Part shown: positions 18,208-62,355 of the stretch, in pieces | Numbering within the stretch: the stretch's first letter is position 1 | How the letters are laid out: each line of letters starts with the position of its first letter | Assembly (NCBI RefSeq): GCF_030684315.1 | Contig: NC_081363.1 | Location: 53,882,312 to 53,946,311 of the forward strand | From: Stegostoma tigrinum | Lineage: Eukaryota | Length of the DNA: 64,000 bases | Reading direction: 5' to 3' | Notes under the pieces: model-generated | Told to the model about the DNA's origin: nothing | Seen by the model: the letters and a program-made list of their open reading frames with translations, nothing else | Databases searched by the model: none | Program-made: the position numbers and the translations under genes

Positions 18208-18704
18208 AGATAATAAAATGTGAGGCTGGATGAACACAGCAGGCCCAGCAGCATCTCAGGAGCACAAAAGCTGACGTTTCGGGCCTAGCCCCTTCATCAG
18301 AGAGGGGGATGGGGTGAGGGCTCTGGAATAAATAGGGAGAGAGGGGGAGGTGGACCGAAGATGGAGAGAAAAGAAGATAGGTGGAGAGAGTATAGGTGGG
18401 GAGGTAGGGAGGGGATAGGTCAGTCCAGGGAAGACGGACAGGTCAAGGAGGTGGGATGAGGTTAGTAGGTAGGAGATGGAGGTGCGGCTTGGGGTGGGAG
18501 GAAGGATGGGTGAGAGGAAGAACAGGTTAGGGAGGCAGAGACAGGTTGGACTGGTTTTGGGATGCAGTGGGTGGAGGGGAAGAGCTGGGCTGGTTGTGTG
18601 GTGCAGTGGGGGGAGGGGACGAACTGGGCTGGTTTAGGGATGCGGTGGGGGAAGGGGAGATTTTGAAGCTGGTGAAGTCCACATTGATACCATTGGGCTG
18701 CAGG
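18208..18704 (-). mobile_element. Young PLE 3' fragment (end of GIY-YIG plus 3' UTR) with 7-bp TSD
   Basis: Nearly identical to 58968-59462. It encodes LQPNGINVDFTSFKISPSP..., and the TSD gaatgct lies at 18201-18207 and 18705-18711. Confidence 0.92.
18270..18303 (-). ncRNA. Minimal hammerhead ribozyme motif (second copy)
   Basis: The minus strand reads CUGAUGAAGGGGCUAGGCCCGAAACGUCAG. The core is intact and there is one substitution in stem II. Confidence 0.72.
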
Positions 18705-18815
18705 GAATGCTTAACATTTTTTTCAGTACAAGGCCTTCTGCATGAGAGCTGGGGCATATGACAGCAGGATGGGAAATACCCAGCTCCTCATTAAGACACA
18801 CAGAGTTTAAACCAG

Positions 18816-20210: not shown

Positions 20211-22268
20211 AGAGTCATAGAGGTGTACAGCATGGTGAAAGATCCTTCAGACCTACTCATCCTTGCTGACCAGTCATCCTCAATGAATCCAGTGCTCATT
20301 TTCCAGCATTTGGCCCATATCCTTCTAAACCTTCCGATTCATATACCTATCCACATGCCTGTTAAATGTTGTAATTGTACTAGCCTCCATCATTTCTTCT
20401 GGCAGCTCATTTCCATAAATACACCACCCTCTGCATGAAAATGTTGCCTCTGAGATCCCTTTTAAATCTTTCCCCTCTCACCTTCTATTGACATCCTCTA
20501 GTTTTGGGTTCCCCCACTCCAGGGAAAAAAAAATCCTTGTCTATTTTCCCTATCCATACCTCCTCATGATTTTATAAACCTCTATAAGATCACCCCTCAG
20601 CTTTCGACGCTCCAGGGAAAATAGCCCCAGCCTATTCAGACTCTCCCTATAACTCAACCCGTCCCCCCCCAAATCCTGGCAACACCCGTGTAAATCCTTT
20701 CTGAGCCCTTTCAAGTTTCGCAACATCCTTCCTATAGCAGGGAAACCAGAATTGCATGCAGTATTCCAGTAGTGACCTAACCAATGTCCTGCACAAGCGC
20801 AACATGACCTCCCAACTACTATACTCAATGCACTGGCCAATAAAAGCAAGCATACCAAATGCCTTCTTCATTATCCTGTTTACCTGCAACTTCATTTTCA
20901 AGGAAATATGAACCTGCACTCCAAGGTCTCTGTTCAGCAACATTCTCCAGGACCTTAGCATTAAGTGCATAAGTCCCACCCTGATTTGCCTTTCCGAAAT
21001 GCCACGTCTCACACTTATCCAAATTAAACTCCATCTACTACACTTCAGCCCATTGCTTCATCCGATCAAGATCCTGTTGTACTCTGAGGTAATCTGCTGT
21101 CCAATACACCTCCAATTTTAGTGTCACATGCAAGCTTACTAACTATATCTCCTATGTTCACGTTCAAATCATTTATATAAATGATGAAAAAGCAGTGGAC
21201 CCAGTACTGATCCTGTGTACACCACTGGTCAGAGACCTCCAGGCTGAAAAGCAAGTCTCCACCACCAAAACCCTCTGTCTTCTGTCTTTGAGCCAGTTCT
21301 GTATCTAAATAGCTAGCTCTCCCTATATTGTTCTATCGTTGCTAACCAGTCTACTATGAGGAGCCTTGTCAAATGTTTTACAGGAGTCCATATAGGTCAC
21401 ATCCACCTCTCTGGTTTCATTAATTCTCCTTGTTACTTCTTCAAAAAACTCAATTAAATGAGTGAGACATGATTTCCCATGCACAGAGCCATGTTGACTA
21501 CTCCTAATCAGTCCTTGTCTTTCCAAATACATGTAAATTCTCTCCCTCAGGATTCCCTCCAACAACTTGCTCACCATTGAAGTCAGGTTCACCAATCTAT
21601 AGTTCTCTGGCATTTCCTTACCACCTTTCTTAAATAATGGCACCACATTAATCAACCTCCACTCTTCCAGCACATCAGCTGTGGCTATTAATGATACAAA
21701 TATCTCAACAAGGGGCCCAATGATCACTTTCCTTGCTTCCAACTGAGTTCTGGGGTGCATCTGATCAGGGCCTGGGTATTTACCTACCTTCATGTATTTT
21801 AAGCTGTCCAGCACCTCCTCCTTTGTAGTATGGACATTTTTCAAGATGTCGCTACTTATTTTCCCATGTTCTATATCTTCCATCTCCTTCTCCAAAGTAA
21901 ATACCAAAGCAAAATACTTGTTTAGTATCTCCCCCATATCCTAAGGCTCAATGCATAGTCGGCCTTGCTGATCTTTAAGGGGCCCTAATCTCTTACTAGT
22001 TACCCTTTTGTCCTTAATGTATTTGTAGAATCCTTTTAGATTCTGCTGAACCCTATTTACCAAGGCTATCTCATGTCCCCCTTTTGCCCCCCTGATCTCC
22101 CTCTCAAGTATACTCCTACTGTCTTTATATTCTTCTAGGGATTCACTCCAATTTTGCTCTTTATACCTGATATATGCTTCCTTCTTTTTCTTGACCAAAA
22201 CCTCAATTTCTCTAGTCATTCAGCATTCCCCACACCTACTAGACTTGCCTTTCACCCAAACAGGAACA
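20211..22268 (-). mobile_element. Decayed CR1 LINE (ORF2 linker, RT and tail)
   Basis: Minus-strand peptides include PGPDQMHPR, NVVPLFKKG, NYRLVNLTS, SQHGSVHGKSCLTHLIEFFEEVT, MEFNLDKCE and LGLFSLERRKLRGDLIEVYKIM. Confidence 0.93.
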
Positions 22269-22949: not shown

Positions 22950-23070
22950 GGTATTTTATATCAATTCGTTCAGACATGTTATGAGATATTTCTAAAGCAG
23001 GTGAAACTTCACCACAGGTTTCTCTGGACCACAGATAGGGATTCTCCTACTGCACTATAAAAGAACTCTA
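22950..23070 (-). mobile_element. Short decayed tRNA-like SINE, inverted relative of 23240-23355
   Basis: tcaattcgttcagacatgttatgagatatttctaaagcagg is roughly the reverse complement of tgctccagaggtgtgtaataagatccctgaacaggttga. Confidence 0.45.
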
Positions 23071-23239
23071 AAATATTAGACTGGGGTTCTGGATTACTAG
23101 TCCAGTGGCATTACCACTACACTTCTACCTCCACAGCCTGTATCTATAGATAGGAAAACAAGTACATCCCCACTGAATACTGCCTGTCCCACTTGAATGT
23201 AATTCAACATACAGTTAACAAATAGAATGTGGAGCGGGA

Positions 23240-23355
23240 TGGGGTTCCTGAGCTGTAATAGTCATGTTCCTACCTCTGAGCTGACAGGCCTGTGTTCAAG
23301 TCTCATATGCTCCAGAGGTGTGTAATAAGATCCCTGAACAGGTTGATTAAAAAAG
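23240..23355 (+). mobile_element. Short tRNA-like SINE
   Basis: Has a B-box-like gttcaagtct and an A-rich tail gttgattaaaaaa. Confidence 0.5.
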
Positions 23356-24127
23356 AACAAATCCACTCTCATGAGATTAAACATAATCTTCGGTTCACCT
23401 CTCGGTCTGTGTTGTGAAAATGATTGCCTAGCCATATTAAGTGGTTAAATGATAAATGCAGGAAGGAACACTGCGCCCTGGCTACATATGCCTCCATGGA
23501 TACTGTCAGGAGATGACTGCCCCTCATCTCTGAGCTAAGATCTTCAACTCTGTATGTACTTTAACTTTCCTTTATTCACATTCATGCACAGTGATTCAGA
23601 AATACTACTTTTTAGTGCAGTGTTTAGATCTCTTTCTTCACCTGCTCATTTTAGACTGAGCCTTCCTTTTTCCTGATGTCCAGCTCATGCGACTACTTCA
23701 ATCATCTCTATTTACATGAGTCTCATTACAACACATCTCTGCCAAAGTTTCTCTCAACTTGATATAGATTATTTCAATAGCTTATCCGAACTCTTCAGCA
23801 TTTTAAATTGTGAACATAACTATTACAATCTTCATTTTTCAACATTATTACCACAGGCTTGGATGTTCTGGAACTCTGAATGGAGTCCTGATCTTGTTCA
23901 CTTGAGTTCAACACTAGAGTAAAGATGCTTTAATGTCTGGAATAGTGGTACCATTCTGAACATTGGCTGTCTCACTTCTTGTGCTAATCAGATTTGGTCT
24001 TTCTTCTCAGCTCTATTAGAGTGAAACCCTATTCTTCTGCCTGAATGTTCCTTCTGGTATTCTGACAATATAAGAGCTTGGTTGATATGTTTGGCTGATC
24101 ACCATAGCTCTGACTTCCTGTCTCTTA

Positions 24128-24262
24128 AATAAAAACCGAAAGAGCAGATGCTATAAATCAGAAACAAAAACAAAAGTTGCTGGAAAAGCTCAGCAGGTCT
24201 GGCAGCATCTGTGGAGAGGAATCAGAATTAATTTCGTGGGTCTGGTGAGGAAGGGTCACTGG
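24128..24262 (-). mobile_element. PLE-derived mini-element
   Basis: Contains gttgctggaaaagctcagcaggtctggcagcatctgtggagag and resembles the copies at 8536 and 62252. Confidence 0.65.
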
Positions 24263-24347
24263 AATCTTGTGTCCAAAGCTAAAATAAACCTCGGCTGCCT
24301 GTTCTTTTGGATTTACTCTGCTTAATTACATTCTCAGTTTGGAGACG

Positions 24348-24568
24348 TTATAGAGTCATAGAGTCACAGAGCATGGAAACTGACCCTTTGATCCAACCAG
24401 TCCATACTAACATAATCCAAAACTGAATTAGTCCCACCTACCTGTTCCTGGCCCATATGCTTTCAAACCTTTCTTATTCATGTATTTATCCAAATGTCTT
24501 TTTAACATTGTAATTGTGCCACATCCACCACTTCCTTAGGAAGTTCATTCCACATGAGCCATCCTCTG
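24348..24568 (-). mobile_element. CR1 3' end
   Basis: Has the tail repeat atagagtcatagagtcacagag and an antisense CR1 3' UTR. Confidence 0.85.
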
Positions 24569-24574
24569 AGGTTG

Positions 24575-26640
24575 TGATCTGAAATTGGTGCATACATTTT
24601 TAACCTTCTCCCCAGTAACAATTGTGCATGCGATCGTTCTTTCTTTTCAATGGTGTTGCTCTGTAATTGGACAGAGCTAACTCCCAGTCTGGATCAGTAT
24701 CTTGATAGTTTTGACTGCTGTTTTTACCTTGCTTCACATGAGAATGGAGTGGAGAACTTATTAGCTGGTTTATGCCTGCCTCCAAGGAGAACTTACAAAA
24801 CCCTTAGTCATAAGTAGAAGTCTATGGTTTGATTTTTTTTTAGGAAACTTTATATCACAAGATATCTTTCAGTGCTTTGACCACAATCTATTGTGGTTGA
24901 ATTGACTCTTGTCACTTCTACCTATCATAAATATTCGATTAAGATTAAATACATCTTCTTGTTAAAATCTTTCGCACACCATTGTCATGACCTTCCCAGA
25001 ACTCTTTGGCTCTATAGGCACTTGCTGATTTATGGAAATATTGGATGCAGTAAGATGTAATTTTATAATTCTTTCAAAATAATTGACCATGTTAGTGATA
25101 GTTATTTTCTTGCTCTATATTTCATGATATCTAGTTGAATGTATGTAGAATTTCTCTTCATATTGACTTTAGTGTAACCATTCTACCATTTTACACCAAT
25201 ACATCTTCCACTATTTTCAATAGCTATTGTTGCTTGTAGTACCTTTTCAGCACTTGGTCTGCTGGACTATGCCTCAACAGTATTTATAGGCAGAATTATG
25301 TACAAGCCTTGCCTTTTTTTGTCACTTATTGCCAAAGAATAAGACTCCACTTCTATAATTTAAGGTATTCTTTTTCTCTGCTCAATCCACTGTTGCTCAT
25401 GAAAGTGTATCTATTATTATTTACACCTTGCCTGGAACATTGACTATGCCAGGGTCATAGATCTTCAACCTTGTTCTACGTCTTCATAAATAGAGGGATT
25501 TTGGGATTTTTTCTGATCTGAATTATGTTATCAATATCCATCTTTACTAGAAATTTCATTACCATCAGTTGGACTGTGAAATTTTCACATTGCCATGTTG
25601 CTGCTAATGCTTCCTTCTATGGGAACATACATCTTTTCAGTCTCCAAAGCTCTCAACATCAAATAAATTGATTTTTATATTTTATCAGTTTGTTGAATAA
25701 AGACTGCTGCTAATCTCGTAGCAGATGCATCAGTTGCTGTTGTCGTGAATGATCTGGAACGTGATGTGCTTCACTTTAATTCTTCAACATTTATAATCTA
25801 TTCTTGACTCCAATGCCATTGCTCATCTTTCCTCAAAAGTTTTATGAATTAAGTAAGACTGAACACAAAACTGGGGTAAATGTTCCCACTTGATTAACAT
25901 GTCGAAGAAACATTGTACATCATTTACATACTTCAGTGTCAGAGATTCACTGATGATGCAATTTCCTAAGATCCACAATGATGTGTTGTTCTTAGATAAT
26001 GTGTTATTAAATAGTAATTGTCAGCCAAGAGGAAAGGGGCAATCTGTAATACCCTTACCATGTCCCTGATCGTCCTTCTTTGCTTTACCATGCACTGGGA
26101 TATTATGCATATGCCAAATGTTATCTTTCTATCCTTTCAAGATTCTAAGTATTATTTCTTTAGAATATTGCTGGTGCAAGTCAGATCCAAATGGGTCATA
26201 ATAAATGAACTCTTGACTCCTCATCTAAGGCTATCACTGTTTACATACAGTTGAGTGAAGAACTTGCTTTTTCTAACTTTGTCAAACTATTGCCAAGACA
26301 AATGGGATGGATCTCTCCCTTTACTCCTTTGCTTAACTGCATGATAGTAACATAAATTTTAGTTTTCCATATTTTTTGAGAAATGTTACTTACACTGAGC
26401 ATCATTGTGTCACTTTATCACTGGTGCTATGTCTCCACTTTCAATCATACTGTCTAATTAAAATGGATAATTAACCATCAGAGGATGATGAATTTTCCTG
26501 GAAGCATACGAGCAAATGGGCTTAGCATCTTTTGCGGTGCAATAATACTCCAGCTTCCATTTGTCTTAATGGTTGAGTAGCTTTCCATATTCTTGCTGAA
26601 ATTCTCTATCTTCATTCTGAAATATTATATCTACCCTTTA
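24575..26640 (-). mobile_element. Decayed Ty3/Gypsy pol remnant
   Basis: Integrase C-terminal motif DPDWELALSNYRATPL (ORF 24600..24785), RNase H TTATDASA near 25720-25745, and RT-like sequence near 26100-26280. There are many stops. Confidence 0.7.
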
Positions 26641-27465
26641 CGAGACCTAAATGAATAAGTCAGTTTCTGTTTATCAATGGAATATTCAGATTCCTCAGTA
26701 TCTATAATGTTTCAATAACATTTCCTCCATGGTGGTTAAGCTTCTCGGTGATTTGCCCATGTAACTGAATGTCTCTGCTTCTTCCGCTTTGGAGTTTGTG
26801 TTAACTGGTCTGATTCTTAGGCTTCAATTGTAGTAAGCATTCTGCCTTGTGTGTTAAGATTATAATCTATTTCAAACCCTTATGCCTAACAATGGCTTCA
26901 GCAATGACTGTTGCAGTAATGCCCAAACCTGCTTCATTCAGCATGGTTTGTAAATGTAGATATGTCCCTCTGCAGATAACAACTGATGCCTTCAGTTGCA
27001 TACCACCTTGGCCAACAAAGAAGAGAGAGAAATGTGGCAGTGTTAGTGGTATGTATGGTGTTCAGGTAGTGTATCCGTAACAATGGAGTAGCAGGTGACA
27101 TGCACAAATGGAAATTTGTGGGCATGAAGCTTGCCACAGTCCTGAACATATATGGGTGAGGAGAATCCCCTAAATGTCACACATGAGTTCAGAATTTTGG
27201 AGTTACCTGGAGGGTGAGTGATCAGGGTGCAGTGAATTGAGCCCAGAAGGAAAAATTCTGTAAAAATGGCCAGTTGGACATAATGGTCTGACTCGTCATA
27301 TAGACTTCAAAATGGAGGTAAGTACGACCAGAATGTTTATTTCCAAGTATTATTAACTTTTAAAAACCTTTTTTATTAATTAAAATGTTTTTACATCTGA
27401 GTGTGGCACCAGAATTAAGCAATATATTGATAGAAGTTAATGTTTGAAAATGTATTCACTGTTTT

Positions 27466-27800
27466 TTTAAAAATTCATTCACAGGATGAGGGCATCGCTG
27501 ACCTGGCAGCATTTATTGCCCATCCTTAATTGCCCAGATTGCAATTCAGAGTCAACCTACATCACATGTAGGCCAGACCAGATGAGGATAGCAGTTCCCT
27601 TCTCTAAAGGGAACCAGATGGGTTTTTCCTGACAATTGACAATGGATTCATGGCCATCATTAGATTCTTAATTCCAGATATTTTATTGAATTCACATTCC
27701 ACCATCTGCCATAGTGGGATTTGAACCCAGGTCCCCAGGACATTATCTGGGTGTCTGGATTGACAGTTTAGTGATAAGACCACTCGGTCATAGCCTCCCG
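27466..27800 (-). mobile_element. SacSINE1/DeuSINE-like tRNA SINE
   Basis: Antisense of gggagg...ggttcaaatcccactatggcagatgg...gggcaattaaggatgggcaataaatgctg...aatgaattt, matching the recalled shark SINE layout. Confidence 0.8.
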
Positions 27801-28289
27801 TAAATGTTACTCATGTAACGTCTTTGATATTGTTGGTACCCAGATACTTAGGATTTAATTCCAAAACTGGACCTCCACAGCATTCTGTTCCTATTGCTTT
27901 TCATGCATGTGTCTGAAGTGTTTACTGGCTCTATGTGGATGCAGGGCATCTCTCTTTCAGTTCATCAAGCCCAGCAAGACCTCCGGTGCAGCAAACTTTG
28001 GATGTTGCTTTCTCCCATCTGTGTGGCATTCTCCCAGTTCAGATTAATTTCCTTACATGTCTCCCAGCACGAAATCCAGCCATTGTTACCTTCTGTTTAA
28101 GAGCAACAGGTTGCATTAACTCTAGCCACACTTGAGGTTGGGTGCAACCAATGAAAAGCTTGGCTCATGTTGATTGAATGATGCTGCTATTATTGAAACA
28201 AGAATACAGCATGAAGTTAGTGTGCTGCCTGATCAAAATCAATATGTCCAGGTTCACGGTGCTTTGCAATCCCCACATCTAATCCCTGC

Positions 28290-29040
28290 AAAAGTTGTTC
28301 ATTTTGACAGGAAGAGGTTTAATACGAAAAAAATCACATCTTAAAGGGAAAATGACTGCAGAATTGAGGCGCAGAGGGATTTGGATTTTCCAATTCAGGA
28401 TTCAAAAAAGCTAGTTTTCAGCTACAGCATTTCATTACAAAGGCTAATGGTGTGCCATTTCATGAGTAATTCAACGTAAAATAAGATGTTAATCTTCAGG
28501 CCTTAGTGAGATCAAATCTCATGCAATTTTGACTTTTTTATTGTAAGAATGGTTTAATAGAAGAATGGCATTATAGGTGGTTTAGAAAAAGGTTTCTAGT
28601 TTGATATCTGGCATAAGCAAGTTCTCTTATGAAGATAAATTGTAGAGGCTGGGTTTTTGTTTTCTGCACTGGAGTTTTAGAAGAGTGAGGGGCTATTCAA
28701 TTGAAGTGTACAAAATCTCAATCTTTCTCGACACAGTTGTTGTGAAAGGGAGGTATCTTCTGGTTGGTCATTTTAGAAGTGTTTTAAAATTAGAGGTTGC
28801 CTTCTCAGGACAGAGAGATTAAGAATGTTTTCTCTCAGCAGATGATGCAAATTTGGAACTCTGTCTCAGAAGGTAGGGAAGGCAAAGTGGCTGAATATTT
28901 TTAAGGGAGAGGTGGATAGATTATTGTTAGCAAAGGGAATCAAGGATTATTTAGGGTAGGTTGGAATGTGGAATTTGAAACAGACACAGGGCAGCCACAT
29001 TTTTTTGGATAATGGTATGGACTTGAAAGACTCTTATTTT
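28290..29040 (+). mobile_element. Highly decayed CR1 3' part
   Basis: Contains ctggagttttagaagagtgagggg...attgaagtgtacaaaat, ttttctctcag...tttggaactc and aagggaatcaaggattat. Confidence 0.7.
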
Positions 29041-29279
29041 GTATGGCTTCCATGTAATATCAAATATGACTTCCAAACATCTAAATACCAGATCTGAGAG
29101 GGAAAAATTGATGACCAGGCTCTCCAACTGCAGAATATATGTTCTGCAGGGCCAGGTGTACACTTTCATTTGGGACCAGTTTATTCCAAAAGCTGTATAG
29201 GAATAGTAAATGGCTTTAAAAGAATGAACTCTTTTGTTAATTATTCACAGTGATATTTTGTTTTTGAGGATTAAGAACC

Positions 29280-29678
29280 TGGGGACAGTATCATAACTGT
29301 AACGCTACTGAATCAGTAATCTAGAGACTTAGATAAAAGATCCAGAAACAAGCTCCAATCTAATGACAAAGTCAAGGGGAATTTAAATTCAATAAAATCA
29401 ATAAGTCTAGTAGAAAATATGATTCAATAATAGCCATGAAACTACTAGATTGTCTTTAAAAGAAGCCTTCTTTACTAATGTCTATTAGGGAAGGAAATCT
29501 GTTGACCTTACTCATGCAATTTGGACTGAAAACCTAAAAATGAGGATATAATTGATTATTTTTCTTCTGACAGTTCTGATTTACCAGATTCACAATTACC
29601 TTCAAAAGAAAACAGTAAGGAAATAAATGTGCTGGCCCAGCCACGAATGCCTACATCCCTGTGAGAAAATAAGAAAAG
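29280..29678 (+). mobile_element. Decayed SacSINE1-like SINE
   Basis: Contains actaatgtctattagggaaggaaatctg and the tail aataaatgtgctggcccagccacgaatgcctacatccc. Confidence 0.7.
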
Positions 29679-30336
29679 CTATAATTTTGCCAGCAATGGT
29701 AAGAGATTCTACTTAAGGCGATATATTCAGTTTGATTGGATGCTATGAACTTATTAACTTGGTCTTTGTTGGAGCACAAAAAGAGTTATTTGAGCAGAAA
29801 ATAGTTTTAATCTATTTACCTTTGCAAGCAAGCAGTTAAAATAAAAATTGAATGTCTTAAAGATAGATTTTGCTAATGTACCTTGTTTTTAATAAAATAT
29901 ACTTTCAAGGATTTCATGTGTTACATTTATACAATATCGCTATGCTTCCTGCCAGTTAGATTGCTTTGGGTTTGCAAATTGCTTATGGAGAAATCTGTTG
30001 GCTGCCTTCATGTACGCTACATAAATTCCGATAGGTTTTGCTGTTTTAAGTAACTGATGCATAGAATTAATCAATCCACTACAAGCCGTTGATTATTTCA
30101 CCATGGCAATACAAGTATTAAAATGGCCAAGGAACCAATGATTATGAGGGGACAGGAAGCATGTCGGTTCTAAATCCTCTTGTAAAGACTGATGCCTTTT
30201 GACCTTGTACTTTTTAAAAATTGTGGACAGAAATGAGGAAGAACTGTTTTGAAAAAAAAGTTAAAGATTTGCTGCATGTTTTGAAAAGGATGTAATCTGA
30301 CATTCATGGTAAGCAATATGTAAATTACTGCTTGTA

Positions 30337-30517: not shown

Positions 30518-31845
30518 TTATTAAAGCTTGGATTGCATTCAAATTGTTGCCAAGGGATTGTGTACGGATGCAGCTCTGTTTGTTAACAAGAAGTTGATTG
30601 GTCTATAGACTAGTGATCAGCTATTGATGACAAAATCCAACAACAGTGATTGGTTCTCAGGCAATGGAACAGCTTGGGACTGTGAAAAAGGTAAAAGTGA
30701 TTTGAGGTCTTCTACCTCAGAAGTGGTCTCTGTTCTCTGCAGTCAAAGTCTAAACTTGAAGTTAAACTGCCTATCTGTCCTCCACCAGTTGTTATAAATT
30801 GTTTTTCAAAATTGCAATGTCAGAAGCCTTTTACAAGTGGAGCAGCCATGTGACTCTTATGAACCAATGGAAGCATCCAGGCAAAGACAACAGGAAAGCA
30901 ATGTTCTGACCAGCATAAGAATCATAAAGATCATCAGACCATCAGATAAATGGGAGTAACAGAAACTGCCTTGCCAGTTTTCCTGCAACCATAATGTGTA
31001 TGCTTGCCTTGAATAGAATTATGTGGTTCCAGTCAGTTTTGGAAACCATTCAATAAGTAACTTTGTTTTTGCTAAAATAAATGAGACAGGTGTTCAGGAA
31101 ACACCACAAATGATTTGACTAACAATTGCCATGAATTTTCTTGAATTTACATCCCTTAGCATACATTGCTGAGTTCAAATCACAATTCAGAGTCAAATTG
31201 TCTTTGCTTATTACTTACTTCACATTGGATTATGACTTGAACCAGTTTCTGTAAAAATAATGAAATAGATTAAGCCCATTGCAGGGCATTGACATTGGGA
31301 AAGTCTCTTCAAGAAAATCATGCTATTTTTCCCCCCCAAACAGACAGCCTTGATGAAATCAACTGAGCCTCTCTTCAAGGTCTTAAGAGATCAATGCAGC
31401 TGGGAGCAGATTGCTTCTTCAGGTAACATATTTGTCCTCTTTTGGCTGCCAGACAGGTGACTACAGTTTCAAATCCCATGGCTGATGGTCACTTGATTTG
31501 AATTGGTTTGTGAGAATTTAACCAACTGTTTGTGGTCCACTAGATGGAGCACAAGATGTTTGTCTCAAGGGAGTAGATACTTAATTTTGCTCAATTCTTC
31601 TGAATGTCGATCACCAATTTTCCAATTTGGTCCCCAGATGAGTCAGAAAAACGATATCAAGGACAGATAATGAAAGAATAGGCAGAATTAACGAATTAAA
31701 TAATACGTCAAAATAATGGGAAGGGGATTATGTTGGACCGGTCCCTGAGTCATTCCCTAAACATCTGCAGCAGCACCACCAACAAAAAGGAAGCTTTTTG
31801 ATCTGGCAATGAGTTACAATTTAAAGAAATGTTAAATCTTAGTGC

Positions 31846-31998
31846 AGAGATAGCAAGAACTGTAGATGCTGGAGTCAGAGATAATACAGTGTGGAGCTGG
31901 AGGAACACAGCAGGCAAGGCAGCATCTGAGGAACAGAACATCAACTTTCCTGCTCCTCTGATGCCATCTGGCCTGCTGTGTTCCTTCAGCTCAACACT
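31846..31998. mobile_element. PLE-derived fold-back mini-element
   Basis: Inverted arms cagtgtggagctggaggaacacagcagg / cctgctgtgttccttcagctcaacactg. Confidence 0.75.
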
Positions 31999-32849
31999 GC
32001 ATTGGCGCAAACCCTAGAGCAACACACATTGGGCATTCTGTTAAAAACAGAAATGAGCTGCGGTAAGGGCTGACCAATGGGCAGGTTGCTCATGTAAATG
32101 TCTGAATGAGGCTGCGTGGCTACAAAGAACAGTGGAGACTTCTTTCATACAACAGCACTCCATGAGAACATTGTCAAAAGTGTACTGTGGTACCAGAACA
32201 AATGACCAAAAGCTTAGTCAAAGGATAGATTTTAAGTATTGTCATCAAAAAAAAATGAGACAGAGATGGATTGTGACAGAACAAGAAATTTCGGGCTGAG
32301 ACAACTGAAAACATGGCTGACAAAGCTGCAGTTGAGAGATTGAGGATGAGCAGGATGTCCCAGCTGGACGGCGAGAGAAATCCCAAAAATTGCAGGGCCA
32401 GAAGAGGTTAGAAAAGTTGCTCCTGCATTCTAGCTTTCCCTCAGATTTCGTTTCCTGATCATATCCCACTTGTTGGCCAGTGGCAGAAAAGCAAACAGTT
32501 AAAAAATCACAAGTCAAATTAATTAGGTTAATGGTAATGGTCTACATCCAAAGAAAAACCTGAAGTAGCCCTAGTGGTAAACAAATGATTTAGACCTAGT
32601 TTTTGAGCAAGAGGATATTTATTTCAAGCTAGACAGAGCGCTGAATGTTATTTAATTATCAGATCATGAACATGGTTGAGAAAACACCAGCTGCAGCTGA
32701 CAAAAGTACAATTATGTGGCCCTGTAGGTATGCTACTTTTGATTAAGGTATGCAATGAGAAACTCTCCAATATATGGGATGCCAGATCATAGAAAACTAA
32801 TGTGAATTTCAGAACCAAGATTCCTCATTTGAATGGGAATGTGCATTTT

Positions 32850-36171: not shown

Positions 36172-36272
36172 TGTTCTGAAAAAGCGTCTAGGCCCGATAT
36201 GTCAGTCTTCCTGCTCCTCTGATGCTGTTTGGCCTTCTGTGTTCATCCAGCTCTACACCTTGATGTCTCTTT
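36172..36272 (+). mobile_element. PLE-derived mini-element with 9-bp TSD
   Basis: It starts with ttctgaaaaagcgtctaggcccgatatgtcag (decayed hammerhead). The TSD actagaaca lies at 36163-36171 and 36273-36281. Confidence 0.8.
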
Positions 36273-41280: not shown

Positions 41281-41453
41281 TCTGAGCAGATATCATCCTC
41301 TGTGATTGGATAAAGTAAGCTTGATCATTAACTGGTGGATTGACGGCAGAAAAGCAGTAAGAGAAATCTTTACTACAACTCCTTTTATTATGGACATCTT
41401 GCCTAACCCTCAAATAATTTCTACGATAGCAGAACAGTAAAAAAAAACTTCAA

Positions 41454-41615
41454 GATAACAAAGTGTGGAGCTGCATGAACACAGCAGGCCAAGCAACGTG
41501 GACACAGCAGGCCAAGCAGCATCTGCTCCTAAGATGCTACTTGGCCTGCTGTGTTCATCCAGCTCCACACTTTGTTATCCCAGATTCTCCAGAATCTGCA
41601 GTTCCCATTATTTCT
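41454..41615. mobile_element. PLE-derived fold-back mini-element with about 17-bp TSD
   Basis: Inverted arms gataacaaagtgtggagctg / cagctccacactttgttatc. The flanks are agtaaaaaaaaacttcaa (41436-41453) and agtaaaaaacacttcaa (41616-41632). Confidence 0.85.
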
Positions 41616-42955: not shown

Positions 42956-43473
42956 AGTTGGGAGGCCATATTGCAGCTGTATAGGGCATTGGCTCAGCCA
43001 CTAATGGAATACGGCATGAACCCTAGTCTCCATGCTATAGGAAGGATGTTGTGAAAGGATTCAGGAAAGACTTACAAGGATGTTGCCAGGGTTAGAAGGT
43101 TGGAGCTATAGAGAGAGGCTGAGTAGGTTGGGGCTATTTTCCCTGGAGCATCAGAGGCTGAGCGGTGATCTTACAGATGTTTATGAAATCATCAGGGCAC
43201 GGATATGGTAAGTAAACAAGGTAATGGAATCCCTACAGTGTAGAAAGAGGCCCTTCAGCCCAATAAGCCCGCACAAACCCTGAGAGCATCCCACCTAGAC
43301 CCATCCCCCTATAAGCCACCTAATCTACACATCCTTGAACACTACAGGCAATTTAGCATGGCCAATCCACCTAGCCTGCATACCTTTGAATGAGGAAACC
43401 GGAGCACCCGGAGGAAACCCACACAGACACAGGGAGAATGTGCAAACTCTACACAGACAGTGGCCCGAGGGTG
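42956..43473 (-). repeat. Left arm of inverted duplication 2 (518 bp)
   Basis: Reverse complement of 44941-45458, including the identical CR1/SINE junction. Confidence 0.95.
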
Positions 43474-43538: not shown

Positions 43539-43751
43539 TTGGTGTTTTCTCTGGGTTTGGGGAGTCCAAAACTAAAAGCATAGTTTGAAATGAGGGGGAA
43601 AGATTTAAAAAGGGGTATAAGGGACAACTTTTTCACACAGAGAGTAGTGTGTGTATGGAATGAACCACAGGAGGAAATGGCGGAGACTGGTACAATTACA
43701 ACATTTAAAAGGCATCTGGATAGGTATATAAATAGGAAGGCTTTAGAGGGA

Positions 43752-44443
43752 GTGATAATGGGAACTGCAGATGCTGGAGAATCCAAGATAATAAAATGTG
43801 AAGCTGGATGAACACAGCAGGCCAAGCAGCATCTCAGGAGCACAAAAGCTGACGTTTCGGGCCTAGACCCTTCATCAGAGAGGGGAATGGGGTGAGGGTT
43901 CTGGAATAAATAGGGAGAGAGGGGGAGGCGGACCGAAGATGGAGAGAAAAGAAGATAGGTGGAGAGGAGAGTATAGGTGGGGAGGTAGGGAGGGGATAGG
44001 TCAGTCCAGGGAAGACGGACAGGACAAGGAGGTGGGATGAGGATAGTAGGTAGGAGATAGAGGTGCGGCTTGGGGTGGGAGGAAGGGATGGGTGAGACGA
44101 AGAACAGGTTAGGGAGGCAGAGACAGGTTGGACTGGTTTTGGGATGCAGTATACCACATTGGCAGATGTGCAGGTGAACCTCTGCTTAATTTGGAAAGTC
44201 ATCTTGGGGCCTGGGATAGGGGTGAGGGAGGAGGTGTGGGGGCAAGTGTAGCATTTCCTGCGGTTGCAGGGGAAGGTGCCGGGTGTGGTGGGGTTGGAGG
44301 GCAGTGTGGAGTGAACAAGGGAGTCACGGAGCGAGTGGTCTCTACGGAAAGCAGACAAGGGTGGGGATGGAAAAATGTCTTGGGTGGTGGGGTCGGATTG
44401 TAGATGGCGGAAGTGTCGGAGAATGATGCGGAGGATGTGTCGG
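43752..44443 (-). mobile_element. Young PLE 3' fragment with internal deletion, inserted into a CR1, with 14-bp TSD
   Basis: Same family as 58968-61347 (SAFRRDHSLRDSLV...PCNRRKCYTCPH). The TSD aggctttagaggga lies at 43738-43751 and 44444-44457, and CR1 sequence resumes after it. Confidence 0.93.
43848..43881 (-). ncRNA. Minimal hammerhead ribozyme motif (third copy)
   Basis: The minus strand reads CUGAUGAAGGGUCUAGGCCCGAAACGUCAG, identical to the copy at 59029-59062. Confidence 0.8.
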
Positions 44444-44940
44444 AGGCTTTAGAGGGATATGGGCCAAATGCTGGAAAATGGGACTGAACTTACTTCGGAT
44501 ATCTGGTTAGCATGGATGAGTTGCACCAAGGGGGTCTATTGCTCTGCAGTACAACTCTCTGATTCTATGACACAATATATAATGTAAACCTGTATTTAAG
44601 AAACAGGTCTTTTTCATACCATACCACACTGGATTATATTCTACGCAGACACATCAATGAATTCTTCTGTATTCATTCAATTCTGTATGAATTCTTTATT
44701 GCAATTGTTATTCAGTCCTCTCAACATAAACATAATGATCAGGGGACCCACAGGTATCGCTTGAGGCTGAGCATTGGAGAAACTGCTAATGAGATATATG
44801 CTCTTGAATATCCAACAGTTCTTTATATCTGTGATAAGGGAAAGGAGGCAGGCACAAGAGAGGATCAACAAAAGCAACATGATGGCACAAGGGATTCTGC
44901 ATGCAGAAAAGTGAGAGATATAAGCCATAGAAGCATGAGT

Positions 44941-45458
44941 CACCCTCTGGCAACTGACTGTGTGGAGTTTGCACATTCTCCCTGTGTCTGTGTGGGTTTC
45001 CTCCGGGTGCTCCGGATTCGTCCTTCAAAGATGTGCAGGCTAGGTGGATTGGCCATGCTAAATTGCCTGTAGTGTTCAAGGATGTGTAGATTAGGTGGCT
45101 TATAGGGGGATGGGTCTAGGTGGGATGCTCTCAGGGTTTGTGCGGGCTTATTGGGCTGAAGGGCCTGTTTCTACACTGTGGGGATTCCATTACCTTGTTT
45201 ACTTACCATATCCGTGCCCTGATGATTTCATAAACCTCTGTATGGTCACCGCTCAGCCTCTGATGCTCCAGGGAAAATAGCCCCAACCTACTCAGCCTCT
45301 CCCTATAGCTCAAACCTTCTAACCCTGGCAACATCTTTGTCAGTCTTTCCTGAATCCTTTCACAACATCCTTCCTATAGCATGGAGACTAGGGTTCATGC
45401 CGTATTCCAATAGTGGCCGAGCCATTGTCCTGTACAGCTGCAACATGGCCTCCCAACT
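44941..45458 (+). repeat. Right arm of inverted duplication 2 (headless SINE plus CR1 flank)
   Basis: gggattccattaccttgtttacttaccatatccgtgccctgatgatttcataaac mirrors about 43179-43233. Confidence 0.95.
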
Positions 45459-46128: not shown

Positions 46129-46350
46129 AGATAGTAGGAACTGCCAGTGCTGGAGAATCTAAGATAACACGGTGTGAAGCTGGATGAACACAGCAGGTCA
46201 AGCAGCATCATAACAGCAGGAAAGTTTGGCATTTCGGGTTGAAACACCCATTTTCTGAAGAAGAGTCTTGATCCAAATCATCAAACTTTCCTGCTGTTAT
46301 GATGCTGCTTGGCCTGCTGTGTTCATCCAGCTTCACACCATGTTATCTTA
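46129..46350. mobile_element. PLE-derived fold-back mini-element with near-perfect ~65-bp arms
   Basis: taagataacacggtgtgaagctggatgaacacagcagg...catcataacagcaggaaagtttg pairs with caaactttcctgctgttatgatg...cttcacaccatgttatctta. A decayed hammerhead sits in the centre. Confidence 0.85.
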
Positions 46351-48437
46351 CTCTCTCTGCAAAAATGGTTTTCCGGGACACAGGAAGTATCCCAGAGTTC
46401 CCAAACAGTAAGGTTCGTAAATTCTAGAGGTTGAAGCAGTCTTTCCATTATTGTTAAACATTGTTCATTCTGATAAACCCTGATATTAGTAAACTTTCAT
46501 AATTCTAATACACAAAATTAGGTAATTAACTGAATGTGTGTTGAAATCAATGCCAAAGGAATAAGTGAAACCTTTGCTTTAGTAAAGATTTATGAGCTCA
46601 AAGTCATCCATTCTTTGTGAAGAATGGTAATTCAAAGTTAGCAGGACAGCCATCCCAGCCACAAGGGATTGATGTTTTACTAACTAGCTAGAAAGATAAT
46701 GTTGGGAGAATTTCACATAGCCACAGTAATGGGGCAGGTTTTGGGGCTGTTTGAAGATGTACAACAGTCTTCATCAAATTAGACTGATTGTGTTATAAAT
46801 AATACAGTGGAGAAGAATTAAAACTCATAACATATCGAAAAGGGAAACAATGCAAGCTTGAAAAATGGAACTTCTTGATGAATGTGGAAACGATATAAAT
46901 AATGAAGAGAGCAGCGCTAGTAGAAGACAGTTCAAATTTAGTCATTTTCTAGCAAGAAAACCTAAAAATAGAAGAGACTTCAGTGCATGAAGGAACAATT
47001 ACAAAGGAGATAGAATCACATCTATCCAGGCAGCGAAGGATATGGATATCTCAGTTTTAGACCTGGATGTCTCAAGTTTCAGGAATAAATTAGGCATGGA
47101 TGAATTTGGTGAAGAGGCAGGAGACAATATTGTATGATCAACCATTGCACTGGTTGAGTGAATATATGGTTTTCCTTTCATCGGAGAACTAAAATGCCCA
47201 GCAAAGAGTAACAGGTAGTAACTCCTTGTCATAGAATGTCACTTAGTTATAATCATGGTGGACCTATTCGGTCAGCGTGGTAGAAACCACATGGAAAGCA
47301 ATGAGAGATGAGAGGCCAAAGAAGTCAACTCTATATGCCACTAGATCGTAGAAAAAATCTAAATCAGGGAATTCATAGTTTTTATGATATTGTGGTTCAT
47401 TAAAATGGTCAAATAACCAGTAGTAGCACCTAAATGTATGAGTTGGCTGGACTGAATCTCTGCTATCATCCTCTGATTAATTTGGGATCTACAGGGCATG
47501 CTTTGTATAGTTTGATTAAGAAAAGCCACCGGGTAGTCTGAGAAGAGGCTCTTGTCTTGAATGTTATGGATGATAAGAGTAAGCACAAGTTATATTTGTA
47601 AGATAGACATTGATGCAAAGGCTGTTGTTGAGAGATTCAAATGATAGGTTTATCTTCTTTGAGATTCAGATCTACTTTGCCCATCTAAATCTGTATGACA
47701 ACTGAGTGGAGTTTAAGACACTCCTCAGCATTAATCCTTTAGGGGTCAAATACCCTGTAAAATAACAAACAACCAAGGGAAGGCAGAGATATTCCTATAC
47801 TATTTGCTGCAAATAGTATAGGAAATGGATTAAAAATGAAAATATAATTCTGGATATGAGGCTCAATTACGACAAATCAAATATAACATATGTGAAATAT
47901 GCTGCTGATTTGCTATTGCTTGTTATCCAATGTTGACAAGTCAAAATTACCTCTGTGTCTTATATAAACTAGCCTGTTAAGAAGGAAGCATTGATGAATG
48001 CAAATGTGTAACTTAGAAAGTAAAGCTGTGCATTACCAATAAAACTGCAGTATTCCTATAAAAGTAGAACATTTTCACAGCGTTGCATGCTTAGTGAAAA
48101 TTTGTTTCTCTGAACGCAAGTTTTCAATTTAAAAACACTGCTAGGCAAAAGGCAGCTATTGCTCAGTCACTGTGTTAATTGCAAATCTTAATGCTGTTCA
48201 CTTATTTTACAAGCAATAACTGAGAATAACAGATTAGATGGGCAAATGTGGTCAGGACATCAAGTGCAGCATACAATTACATTTGTAGAATATGCTCCTG
48301 GCGAAATCTGCAAATTATCCTTAAAATTTGTTTAACCAGAGATAATTTTGACTTGGGACATTAATGGGAGATACTGTGGGCAAGAATTCAGCTCTGGTCA
48401 CAGCCTAAATTCCAGGCAGAAAAGTGCGCAAAATATC

Positions 48438-48807: not shown

Positions 48808-49007
48808 GGACAATAAAAAACTGCAGATGTTGGAATCCAAAGTAGACAATCAAGAGGCTGGAAGAACACAGCAGGCCATGCAGCATCTGGAGGAAAAGAG
48901 CAGTCGACATTTTGTGTATTACCCTTCTTCTGGACTTGAAATGTTGGCTGCTCCTTTCTTCCAGGTGTTGCCTGGTCTGTTGTGTTATTCCAGCCTCCTG
49001 TTTGTAT
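48808..49007. mobile_element. PLE-derived fold-back mini-element at the 5' end of a tRNA pseudogene
   Basis: Inverted arms gaggctggaagaacacagcaggcc / ggtctgttgtgttattccagcctc. The TSD core caagaaag lies at 48800-48807 and 49013-49020. Confidence 0.7.
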
Positions 49008-57970: not shown

Positions 57971-59028
57971 GAACCAGTAGTGTTTAGAGAAATTAACATC
58001 CCTTTTTCTTTCTTTTCAAAAAGATCCTTTGCAACATTTCAGTTATAATCCAGCCCTCCAGAGGGTTTTAGCAAGTCAAAATTATCTGTAATGCCTGGAA
58101 CTTGACTTGTTGGAACAACTTTTAGAACTTAACAATCATATTGGTAGCTAAACTCACAAGCTGCTTCACTCTAAAATTTCCCCACAGATTTGCCCTAAAA
58201 TTGAATGTTTCATGCCAACAAACTTGACTTCCTGAGCTCCTGGCTTGATTTAGTACTTTGACTTGACATTCTGTCTTTAAGTAATCTCCAAAAATCAAGA
58301 ATTTTGCGCATAATTTTCCTGCAAATACTCTTGCACAGCTCCTAGTTGACCCTGGATGAGTGCATTTTATAACAAAAAGCTCCCATGGCAAGACCATTAG
58401 GGAAGGTGAGTCAATTAGTAAATACTGGAACAGCAGAGAATTTTGTAAATGTTTACAACAAATCAAACTTGTTGAGCATCTAAAAAAGCATAACAGCCAA
58501 TGTAACGCAACACCTTTGTTTAACATAACAGTTCATTCAACAGTTTACTTTCCGACAATAATTCTGTTTGCCTCCATGTTAAGGGTCAAAGCTGCTTTTA
58601 TTTTTAAACAGTCCAAGGACGCAAGTTATGAAATGCTGTGAAATTTAAGTTACGTTGAGAATATCTGTGAGATGGAGCAGAACGATTGTTTGCAGTGAAC
58701 AACCATTCTAAGTTCATTCTGTAAGCAATTACTCATTTAAATCATGAGCAAACTCTCCTGCAGGAGTTTACTGAATAAACATCAATCTTTTTATAGACAA
58801 GACAAAGATGAAGCCACATGCCAAAAGTGAACAGTGTCTGAAGGAGAGCCCATTCAGTGCCAAGAAGAAAGTGGTATTTATATGGAACCTGGCTGGTACT
58901 GTCTCAAGAGCCCGTTGCCATAGAAATGTTTACTATGTCTCTCCAAAGCATATCACAGAGGAAGTAAGACAACAAAATGTGAGGCTGGATGAACACAGCA
59001 GGCCAAGCAGCATCTCAGGAGCACAAAA

Positions 59029-59062
59029 GCTGACGTTTCGGGCCTAGACCCTTCATCAGAGA
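59029..59062 (-). ncRNA. Minimal type-I hammerhead ribozyme motif in the PLE 3' region
   Basis: The minus strand reads CU-CUGAUGA-A-GGGU(CUAG)GCCC-GAAA-CGUC-AG. This gives the conserved CUGANGA and GAAA cores, a stem II, a palindromic ACGU in place of stem III, a GUC cleavage triplet and a very short stem I. It matches the minimal hammerheads known from Penelope-like elements. Confidence 0.8.
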
Positions 59063-59283
59063 GGGGGATGGGGTGAGGGTTCTGGAATAAATAGGGAGAG
59101 AGGGGGAGGCGGACCGAAGATGGAGAGAAAAGAAGATAGGTGGAGAGAGTATAGGTGGGGAGGTAGGGAGGGGATAGGTCAGTCCAGGGAAGACGGACAG
59201 GTCAAGGAGGTGGGATGAGGTTAGTAGGTAGATGGGGGTGCGGCTTGGGGTGGGAGGAAGGGATGGGTGAGAGGAAGAACAGG

Positions 59284-61270
59284 TTAGGGAGGCAGAGACA
59301 GGTTGGACTGGTTTTGGGATGCAGTGGGTGGAGGGGAAGAGCTGGGCTGGTTGTGTGGTGCAGTGGGGGGAGGGGTCGAACTGGGCTGGTTTAGGGATGC
59401 AGTTGGGGAAGGGGAGATTTTGAAACTGGTGAAGTCCACATTGATACCATTAGGCTGCAGGGTTCCCAGGCGGAATATGAGTTGCTGTTCCTGCAGCCTT
59501 CGGGTGGATTCATTGTGGCACTGCAGGAGGCCCATGATGGACATGTCATCTAAAGAATGGGAGCGGGAGTGGAAATGGTTTGCGACTGGGAGGTGCAGTA
59601 GTTTGTTGCGAACTGAGCGGAGGTGTTCTGCAAAGCGGTCTCCAAGCCTCCGCTTGGCTTCCCCAATGTAGAGGAAGCCACACCGGGTACAGTGGATGCA
59701 GTATACCACATTGGCAGATGTGCAGGTGAACCTCTGCTTAATGTAGAATGTCATCTTGGGGCCTGGGATGGGGGTGAGGGGGGAGGTGTGGGGGCAAGTG
59801 TAGCATTTCCTGCAGTTGCACGGGAAGGTGCCGGGTGTGGTGGGGTTGGAGGGCAGTGTGGAGCGAACAAGGGAGTCACGGAGAGAGTGGTCTCTCCGGA
59901 AAGCAGACAGGGGTGGGGATGGAAAAATGTTTTGGGTGGTGGGGTCGGATTGTAGATGGCGGAAGTGTCGGAGGATGATGCGTTATATCTGGAGGTTGGT
60001 AGGGTGGTGTGTGAGAACGAGGGGAATCCTCTTTGGGCGGTTGTGGCGGAGGCAGGGTGTGAGGGACATGTTGCGGGAAATACGGGAGACGCGGTCGAGG
60101 GCGTTCTCGATCACTGTGGGGGGAAAGTCGCGGTCCTTGAAGAACTTGGACATCTGGGATGTGCGGGAGTGGAATGTCTTATCGTGGGAGCAAATGCGGC
60201 GGAGGCGGAGGAATTGGGAATAGGAGATGGAATTTTTGCAGGAGGGTGGGTGGGAGGAGGTGTATTCTAGGTAGCCGTGGGAGTCGGTGGGCTTGAAATG
60301 GGCATCAGTTACAAGCTGGTTGCCTGAGATGGAGACTGAGAGGTCCAGGAAGGTGAGGGATGTGCTGGAGATGGCCCAGCTGAACTGAAAGTTGGGGTGG
60401 AAGGTGTTGGTGAAGTGGATGAACTGTTCGAGCTCCTCTGGGGAGCAAGAGGCGGCGCTGATACAGTCATCAATGTACCGGAGGAAGAGGTGGGGTTTGG
60501 GGCCTGTGTAGGTGCCGAAGAGGGACTGTTCCACGTAACCTACAAAGAGGCAGGCATAGCTGGGGCCCATGCGGGTGCCCATGGCCACCCCCCTTAGTCT
60601 GTAGGAAGTGGGAGGAGTCAAAAGAGAAGTTGTTGAGGGTGAGGACGAGTTCGGCTAGGCGGATGAGGGTGTCGGTGGAGGGGGACTGTTCGGGCCTGTG
60701 GGACAGGAAGAAGCGGAGGGCCTTGAGGCCATCTGCATGCGGAATGCAGGTGTATAGGGACTGGACGTCCATGGTGAAGATGAGGTGTTGGGGCCCAGGG
60801 AATTGGAAGTCCTGGAGGAGGTGGAGGGCATGGGTGGTGTCACGGACGTAGGTAGGGAGATCCTGGACCAAAGGGGAGAAGATGGAGTCCAGATAGGTGG
60901 AGATGAGTTCGGTGGGGCAGGAGCAGGCTGAGACGATTGGTCGACCTGGGCAGGCAGGTTTGTGGATTTTGGGAAGGAGATAGAAACGGGCCGTGCGGGG
61001 TTGGGGAACAATGAGGTTGGAGGCTGTGGGTGGGAGGTCCCCTGAGGCGATGAGGTCATGAATGGTGTTGGAGATGATGGTTTGGTGCTTGGGTGTGGGG
61101 TCATGATCGAGGGGGCGGTAGGAGGTGGTGTCGGAGAGTTGGCGTCTGGCCTCAGCGATGTAGAGGTCAGTGCGCCATACTACCACTGCGCCACCCTTGT
61201 CTGCGGGTTTGATGGTGAGGATGGGGTTGGACCAGAGGGAGCGGAGGGCTGCCCGTTCTGCGGGGGAGAG
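59284..61270 (-). pseudogene. Disrupted PLE RT/GIY-YIG reading frame (one frameshift, one stop, N-terminus missing)
   Basis: The frame changes at the C homopolymer near 60587-60593 and there is a TAA at 59983-59985. Past the stop the frame reads RIILRHFRHLQSDPTT...GPKMTFYIK straight into the GIY-YIG ORF. Confidence 0.88.
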
Positions 61271-62251
61271 CTGTGGGTGGGAGGTCCCCTGAGGTGATGA
61301 GGTCATGAATGGTGTTGCTGTGGGTGGGAGGTCCCCTGAGGTGATGGTCACAGAGGAAGTAATTTTAGTTCTGCTTGATGATGCTAAGGAATAGCCATTT
61401 TCACTTCACTTTAATATCTTTGCAGTATTGTAATCATAAAAATGACTCTCCAGAAACATTTTTAAATTCTAGAGTTCTTTTTGATCTGAGTATGTTGATT
61501 TTTGTTTATATTTACCTAATCCCAGGTATGAAAGTTTGTTAGATGCACCCATTAATTACTGGGGATTTGGCTACAGATGCATAATGCCCAGATTTTTCCA
61601 TTTGTCTTTTGATTACATTGGATGAAAAATACAATTAAGTCAAACAGGCTTCACAAATGTTGGGAACGTTGTTTGGATTTTGCGGACGAATGCTCTGTAC
61701 ATTTATGCTTCGAAGCTACACTTTGAGGTTATTAGGCTGTCAAAGCTGCGTGTCATCTTTCATTGTGGGGAAAAGAAATGTGTTTCTTCAATCAGAATGA
61801 AGAATCCTTGCTCTGGCATGTGGGGCTTGATTTTTAATCACCTTTGTTGGGGGGTGGGATTGGTGAGTCCCTGTTTTAATAATAGCACCGCCAAGGATAT
61901 GCCGGTCTTCCAAGGCATTTGGAATGCATAACTATTTTTAAATTTGGTGGGTTCGTCAACAACTCAGTCACATCAAATTAACTATCGATTGAAATTTTTG
62001 GAGGACACTGCTAATGATCTTGGGAGGACCAGAAGACAACCTTCAAAGGCAGAACAAATAAAATTGAACAATGTATTACAAACTAATTGGATGAAAGATA
62101 GGGAGCCATTAAGGTTTGTTTATGCTTAATGAACGATTTTGATAACACTCAGTTTGTCTACATTTTCATTGACCATTTGTCTGCAACAAGAGATTACTGG
62201 ATCTCTTGATTTCTCTGTTGTGTAAGGCAGTAACTGTTACATGACTTCATG

Positions 62252-62355
62252 CATTCTGAGAAAGGGTCACCGAACCCAAAATGTTAACTCTGCTTTTTTT
62301 TCTTCGTGGATGCTGCCAGACCTGCTGAGCTATTCTAGCAACTTTGTTTTTGTTT
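62252..62355 (+). mobile_element. PLE-derived mini-element with 11-bp TSD
   Basis: It starts with cattctgagaaagggtcaccgaacccaaaatgttaac (decayed hammerhead). The TSD atgacttcatg lies at 62241-62251 and 62356-62366. Confidence 0.8.

Follow-up and report, generated by a model that had tools for sequence, protein, structure and literature searches.

A minimal type I hammerhead motif in the 3' pseudo-LTR of a young, probably Neptune-type Penelope-like element in the shark Stegostoma tigrinum

Results

Three young Penelope-like insertions

The window analysed here is a 64,000-nucleotide stretch of the Stegostoma tigrinum genome (RefSeq assembly GCF_030684315.1, contig NC_081363.1, forward-strand positions 53,882,312 to 53,946,311), and all coordinates count from its first base. 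It carries three young insertions of a Penelope-like element (PLE) on the minus strand. The 59 kb insertion (58968-61347, minus) is a 5'-truncated, apparently Neptune-type copy of about 2.4 kb bounded by 15-bp TSDs (58953-58967 and 61348-61362), its upstream pLTR being absent through the truncation. It contains a reverse transcriptase (RT) remnant with DKG and YIDD motifs (59986-61270, minus), followed by a Zn-finger-like linker (CX4CXXC at 59820-59794) and, C-terminally, a GIY-YIG endonuclease (together 59284-59982, minus). The combination of a PLE-type RT with DKG plus a C-terminal GIY-YIG in one ORF is thus present; in this copy the ORF is interrupted twice, once by a frameshift near 60590 and once by an in-frame stop (59985-59983). 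The ORF stop codon sits 225 nt upstream of the hammerhead core described below, and the 3' end segment past the predicted cut (58968-59031, minus) terminates at the shorter of two genome-wide end points. Two pieces of the ORF, of 53 and 30 nt, are duplicated at the 5' end of the copy (61265-61346).

The second insertion (43752-44443, minus; about 0.7 kb) has an internal deletion and 14-bp TSDs (43738-43751 and 44444-44457), and terminates at the longer end point with an extra tail of about 32 nt. Around 370 nt of its endonuclease region were lost via a 9-nt microhomology (44142-44150). The third (18208-18704, minus; about 0.5 kb) has 7-bp TSDs (18201-18207 and 18705-18711). All three are 5'-truncated and have neither an upstream pLTR nor a tandem partner. 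An earlier note on this DNA had proposed three young Penelope-like copies and recent activity of the family, and indeed the copies diverge from each other by 2.4-3.3% and retain intact TSDs. The family is young, and the three copies themselves are dead relics.

The RT remnant finds its best protein match in Chiloscyllium punctatum (bamboo shark; 84% over 226 residues), with 67% in a further comparison; a devil ray protein follows at 76%, and the next matches, at 50-64%, are mostly to unnamed proteins or to those of marine invertebrates. The GIY-YIG domain of the 59 kb copy gave an E of 0.003, which is under the Pfam curated cut-off, and Pfam RVT_1 matches the relative P0001, the RT pieces of the element in the window remaining unmatched. 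Several traits of EN+ PLEs were seen, namely 5' truncation, tandem or inverted partners and an optional tail of 30-40 bp. The linker, compared by eye, is of the CX2-5CXXC type and lies ahead of the C-terminal GIY-YIG, with a 23-residue spacer before the next Cys; the spacer measures 25-27 residues in Neptune-1_Ac and Neptune1_Nv and about 7 in Nematis_C4 (PMC8557442 Fig. S2, also by eye). The Neptune clade, as defined in PMC8557442, resembles the element in its C-terminal GIY-YIG, CX2-5CXXC linker, 5' truncation, inverted or tandem partners and optional tail. Judged by linker spacing seen by eye, the host element would be a Neptune-type PLE.

Other repeats in the window

A profile search of the window returned 27 related end pieces, mostly decayed, several of them as inverted pairs. 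Two are TSD-bounded solo mini copies starting about 4 nt upstream of the core: one with a decayed hammerhead and a 3' segment (36172-36272, plus; 9-bp TSD) and one of a more distant subfamily (62252-62355, plus; 11-bp TSD). PLE end pieces in head-to-head inverted pairs make up long hairpins at 16856-17065, 31845-32005, 41450-41615, 46130-46359 and 48823-49000, of which two have TSDs (11 and 9 bp) and three have weak matches to miRNA models. Two long inverted repeats were also noted, each 95% complementary with arms about 1.4 kb apart: one of 518 nt (42956-43473 with 44941-45458), which encloses the 43 kb PLE copy, and one of 420 nt (12332-12751 with 14127-14546). RT fragments of another retroelement lie at 15187-16185 (plus) and 21326-21940 (minus); we take them to be probably CR1-type LINEs. 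When 98 of the 121 frames of at least 78 codons were compared with Pfam, two RT fragments were the only matches, and no host domain was found among these frames; the 23 omitted frames overlap the three young PLE copies, and short exons would escape such a scan.

The hammerhead motif

A 28-nt hammerhead motif lies on the minus strand, the sense strand of the host element, at 59059-59032 and 43878-43851. The two sites are identical and read CUGAUGA, A, GGGUCUAGGCCC, GAAA, CGUC. A third motif (18300-18273, minus) differs by a single base, the fourth base of stem II being changed from U to G. All three sites had been placed on the sense strand by the earlier note, and we confirm them. In the 59 kb copy (59032-59059, minus) positions C3 to A9 correspond to 59059-59053 and are followed by a bulged A, a stem II read from the motif as 4 bp with a CUAG loop, GAAA, and the palindromic stem III half ACGU, with C17 at 59032. 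The predicted cut falls between 59032 and 59031 (minus). Stem I, formed by 59061-59060 with 59031-59030 (minus), closes the type I fold by 2 bp only, in agreement with the earlier estimate. In the second young copy (43851-43878, minus) the cut is predicted between 43851 and 43850.

Every base of the core (CUGANGA, GAAA and the NUH cut site) is present in all three young copies, as is the palindrome ACGU at 15.2-16.2 with no stem III loop. The base between positions 9 and 10.1 and the G10.1-C11.1 pair are in good order in two copies; the 18 kb copy (18273-18300, minus) has them with a predicted slip in register. Its stem II change disrupts one pair and weakens the required G10.1-C11.1 register, for which folding prediction gave a P of 0.055 versus 0.99 in the other two. 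The hammerhead can thus be called intact, as originally described, in the 59 and 43 kb copies and not in the 18 kb copy. Neither CpG of the motif has been lost in any of the three young copies, again as noted before. For the 59 kb copy the observed/expected CpG ratio of the ORF part is 0.57, compared with 0.22 over the window; the 3' parts have 0.27-0.37.

A strict descriptor, defined as a stem II of at least 4 bp with a palindromic stem III, gave two matches in the window and one in total over 60 windows simulated from it by a third-order Markov model. With a 2-bp stem I as an added requirement, a looser descriptor matched exactly the three young copies in the window. An Rfam scan of the window (E up to 1) returned nine matches and no hammerhead: eight were to miRNA models and one to a snoRNA model, all under gathering scores, the miRNA-model matches falling on the inverted PLE end pairs at 31.9, 41.5 and 48.9 kb. 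Probably a loopless stem III escapes the Rfam hammerhead models. Since Rfam gave no hammerhead match we built our own covariance model from 16 motifs, all from outside the window, picked from 28 matches for a stem II of similar length and for a palindrome of two bases. Loci collected by RT similarity supplied 14 of them; the other two were found with a pattern based on the window motif, so that the model is slightly biased. The three young copies took the top three ranks with 36.3, 35.5 and 31.1 bits (E roughly between 1e-8 and 5e-7). Directly below them came decayed hammerheads of an older related subfamily at 9771-9798 (plus; CUGAAGA type; 25.5 bits) and 5416-5443 (plus; 19 bits). A hammerhead model search, as suggested in the earlier note, is therefore negative with Rfam and positive with a model made from relatives.

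Two sequence features near the core were seen on the minus strand. A long pyrimidine tract (59140-59082), 3' splice site-like in appearance, has its closing AG at a distance of 22 nt upstream of the core; in Drosophila virilis Penelope an intron is reported to terminate at helix I (PMC4209133). An AUG within the hammerhead core opens a 13-codon frame (59056-59015), and a second AUG about 20 nt past the predicted cut is kept in most end pieces; compared by eye, the frame of the second AUG showed no resemblance to the N-termini of relatives.

Relatives and covariation

A minimal hammerhead is present in 22 of 80 metagenome loci collected by RT similarity, the control giving one locus in total over 20 shuffles of all 80. 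On the ORF strand are 23 of the 26 hammerhead matches in these relatives: 12 lie 105-427 nt past the endonuclease, four further downstream, three upstream of the ORF and four between partial tandem copies. The placement of the motif is shared by relatives with no more than 38-60% RT identity, and in locus L030 a near-identical motif adjoins an RT 57% identical to that of the window element. Stem I is 2 bp long in four of the 26 matches and 3-7 bp in the other 22.

When 16 relatives were aligned, 96% of cells were paired and eight of ten pairs were changed on both sides (score 0.844). None of 500 shuffles reached this score and pairing, and 55 of 500 had as many pairs with changes on both sides. 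In 14 window copies covariation was not above shuffles (128/500), the second pair of stem I being U-A in eight, C-G in three and U-G in two, with one compensatory change between subfamilies. Stem covariation is thus strong among distant relatives and no higher than in shuffles among the copies of the window. A family-specific pattern had no match in metagenome contigs, and none of 74 candidates in viral contigs was an RT relative. Three viral matches to a general hammerhead pattern were ruled out, as they failed the descriptor. PLE-type minimal hammerheads also occur in L004 and L007, contigs of one bacterial MAG; the motif of L007 has a match beside a PLE RT in metagenome locus L013, and both contigs are therefore probably animal host DNA in the bin.

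Predicted folding

In the predicted fold of the monomer the core strand CUGAUG pairs with CGUCAG (-11.4 kcal/mol, P 0.95), and the cut site is thereby concealed. The active double-hammerhead dimer was predicted at -5.5 kcal/mol, tertiary energy being left out of this value, whereas the inactive alternatives are two hairpins at -11.4 kcal/mol each or, as the best cofolded dimer, an inactive one at -38.0 kcal/mol. The fold energy of six stretches around the motif was no better than that of shuffles (z -0.08 to 0.94). Stem-loop II (59040-59051) is a near-palindrome that could form a 12-bp duplex between two RNAs and so stabilise an inactive dimer; this near-palindrome is absent from the older subfamilies.

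As a single strand cannot close the loopless stem III, a partner is needed for cutting. Because the monomer fold is predicted to be inactive and the active dimer to be far less stable, a chaperone would probably be required as well. The proposal of the earlier note that cutting needs a dimer is supported in this way, the young copies themselves having no tandem partner. Its further claim, that a cut after GUC serves RNA processing in this family, stays a conjecture: the prediction is an inactive hairpin, the active dimer is unstable, and many short copies start upstream of the core.

Insertion ends and copy number

Run X1 was aligned to the 301 bases of 43730-44030, the end counts being lower bounds. 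Loose 3' ends pile up at 43786 (at least 1398 contigs, agreement 0.38) and at 43754 (at least 999 contigs, agreement 0.43). Given these piles of loose ends with low agreement, insertions terminate at two sites 32 nt apart, the short end point being used by the 59 and 18 kb copies and the long one by the 43 kb copy. Two RT start sites and a 30-40 bp tail are known for PLEs (PMC11167929, PMC8557442). Both end points share the short repeated motif ATTATC (element sense), which suggests sequence-defined RT start sites.

On the 5' side at least 1018 contigs break at 43879, the base preceding C3 (agreement 0.37), and this pile consists partly of older subfamilies that diverge upstream of the core. 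The predicted cut site is absent from the six loose-end places listed for X1. The breaks at 43879 and the two TSD-bounded solo copies suggest that new insertions are usually templated by uncut RNA that starts just upstream of the core. Among the 27 joints listed of 713, four of the nine into tail ends start at 43850, the first base past the predicted cut. These make up four of the 12 listed joints with inserted letters (331 further exist), concern four different tail-end positions and each carry an extra A in element sense, their orientation not being recorded. A preferred endonuclease target within the element's own pLTR would give the same pattern, and the joints are only a lead. In the depth of X1 the core bases G5 and G8 vary by about 0.7%, other G positions of the motif by 1.3-2.4% and upstream UTR positions by 0.6-0.8%.

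The young 3' UTR reaches a depth of 23,000-30,000 in a same-species bisulfite run of 1,938 million letters, where 64,405 of 12.8 million reads align to the 301 bases at 80% likeness. If the genome measures 3-5 Gb, as we assume, the young 3' module is present in roughly 5x10^4 to 10^5 copies. Related subfamilies are also present in run X16, putatively an RNA run. No pile of molecule ends was seen in the aligned data, which is what DNA and contigs would be expected to give.

Discussion

Relation to known hammerheads and elements

The consensus of the minimal hammerhead (min-HHR) comprises CUGANGA-H, G10.1-C11.1 and a palindrome at 15.2-16.2 (PMC4209133 Fig. S3). As described by Cervera and de la Pena in 2014 (PMC4209133), this class shares with the window motif the type I topology, the CUGANGA core and the extra base before stem II, together with G10.1-C11.1, a loopless palindromic stem III, a position 3' of the RT-EN ORF and many dispersed solos. 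By its sequence the window motif has every min-HHR feature, dimer cleavage being a prediction. The identification as a minimal type I PLE hammerhead with stem III reduced to a palindrome, already made in the earlier note, is thus upheld by core, bulge, palindrome and pLTR position. With 2 bp in stem I and 4 bp in stem II the motif sits at the short end of the range of its class, and it differs further by its near-palindromic loop II. Its layout is close to that of the Neptune hammerhead of Acropora digitifera (PMC4209133).

PAc, a Poseidon element of Anolis carolinensis (Frangieh et al. 2024, PMC11167929), likewise has a pLTR hammerhead with an AUG where stem II begins, and two 3' end points about 30-40 nt apart. 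It belongs to another PLE clade, and its AUG opens the ORF whereas the AUG in the window opens a 13-codon frame that stops. The three young copies are unlike the non-LTR retrozymes of PMC7229834 and of a 2026 preprint (bioRxiv 10.64898/2026.07.22.740005) in that they are dispersed, TSD-flanked single insertions bearing ORF or UTR and not tandem arrays. Min-HHRs in metazoan PLE pLTRs were also reported by Lunse et al. 2017, as cited in the review PMC6765202. No cartilaginous fish is listed in Fig. S3 and Table S1 of PMC4209133, and the 2026 preprint covers one chondrichthyan genome with retrozymes. Within the papers covered, our literature search found no description of a shark PLE hammerhead of this family; the supplements of that preprint may include it. 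The hammerhead class has been known since 2014 and occurs from cnidarians to reptiles; the window family adds another host lineage to it.

What the motif does

The in vivo role of PLE hammerheads is the question of the field, given that cutting in vitro is weak and is dispensable for insertion in one reconstituted system. We favour, with moderate confidence, the reading that a young Neptune-type PLE carries the motif as a minimal type I hammerhead in its 3' pseudo-LTR, where it is predicted to be inactive alone and likely to cut after GUC only as a pair, probably with the help of the element's own protein, the three truncated copies being likely dead passengers. Cutting only in the presence of the element's protein was reported for the PAc hammerhead of Anolis (PMC11167929), and weak cutting by the dimer alone for Schistosoma (PMC4209133). 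The motif may instead be vestigial or non-catalytic, with no cutting in this lineage; if it is retained for anything, this would be as a hairpin or sequence signal where the RNA begins, be it a promoter, a site for protein binding or an RT stop. We consider this possible but rather unlikely. It would agree with the stem I of just 2 bp and the stable inactive hairpin that dominates the prediction, with short copies that begin at the upstream edge of the motif, away from the cut, and with covariation among window copies no greater than in shuffles. It also finds a parallel in Anolis, where hammerhead mutants inserted normally in vitro so that cutting was dispensable, and RNA-seq had no RNA ends at the cut (PMC11167929). 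The catalytic core, bulge, G10.1-C11.1 pair and dimer palindrome are nevertheless kept both in the young copies and in distant relatives; stems I of 2 bp occur in published PLE hammerheads, e.g. of Drosophila virilis and Culex (PMC4209133); and four of the nine listed tail-end joints start at the predicted cut.

The remaining readings have far less in their favour. Paired motifs within one pre-mRNA or on different RNAs might cut host transcripts, for which the shared minus strand of the three young copies and a copy number in the tens of thousands could be cited. This is very unlikely, as 15 and 26 kb separate the copies, the active dimer is predicted to be unstable, the 98 long frames contain no host protein domain, and a shared strand for three copies has a chance probability of 0.25. 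We give still less credence to a self-sufficient monomeric ribozyme. The core is complete in two copies, but stem III would need a C-G pair without a loop, which is impossible in a single strand, the predicted monomer fold is inactive, and a single Schistosoma min-HHR did not cut, its dimer cutting weakly (PMC4209133). Chance resemblance to a hammerhead within a repeat, to which the lack of an Rfam hammerhead match and a fold energy no better than shuffles might point, can practically be dismissed: the descriptor simulations, the covariance model and the same placement in relatives with RTs 38-60% identical speak against it, and the covarying motif in those relatives refutes it.

Proposed mechanism

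The paired, protein-aided hammerhead that we favour could operate as follows. In a single module the core strand CUGAUG would be paired with CGUCAG and the cut site masked, as the folding prediction has it. In an active tandem array, to judge from the relatives, the module would double as the leader on the 5' side of the ORF that follows; among the copies seen of the window's PLE family none is a full-length tandem. Two modules on one transcript could then pair via the ACGU palindrome into a 4-bp stem III and exchange the 2-bp stems I, and cutting would free the element RNA from a co-transcript of greater length. Internal initiation of reverse transcription at one or the other of two sites would yield short and long tails. 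The insertion ends further suggest that cutting would be slow or late and that the template of most new copies would be uncut RNA starting a few bases upstream of the core. Such a start would also explain the 2-bp stem I.

It is tempting to read the joints of compound insertions at the first base past the cut as a genomic record of ribozyme cutting in the germ line, although we hold this to be unlikely. In such a scenario RT would run off a ribozyme-cut RNA and jump onto a second RNA at the latter's internal start site, and the joint would consist of a downstream unit beginning past the cut, the extra A and the tail end of the upstream unit. If true, shark genomes would give evidence of PLE hammerhead cleavage in vivo, unlike the Anolis RNA-seq, and the joints would point to a route by which PLE tandems form. 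Three copies alone give no answer to the in vivo question, which the young and very high-copy family makes testable by counting insertion starts.

Head-to-tail units of 96, 128 and 131 nt were observed elsewhere in the genome, with joints 43879-43784, 43881-43754 and 43884-43754. They are like the non-LTR retrozymes cited above, and would hold two hammerheads in cis in the manner of a mini retrozyme.
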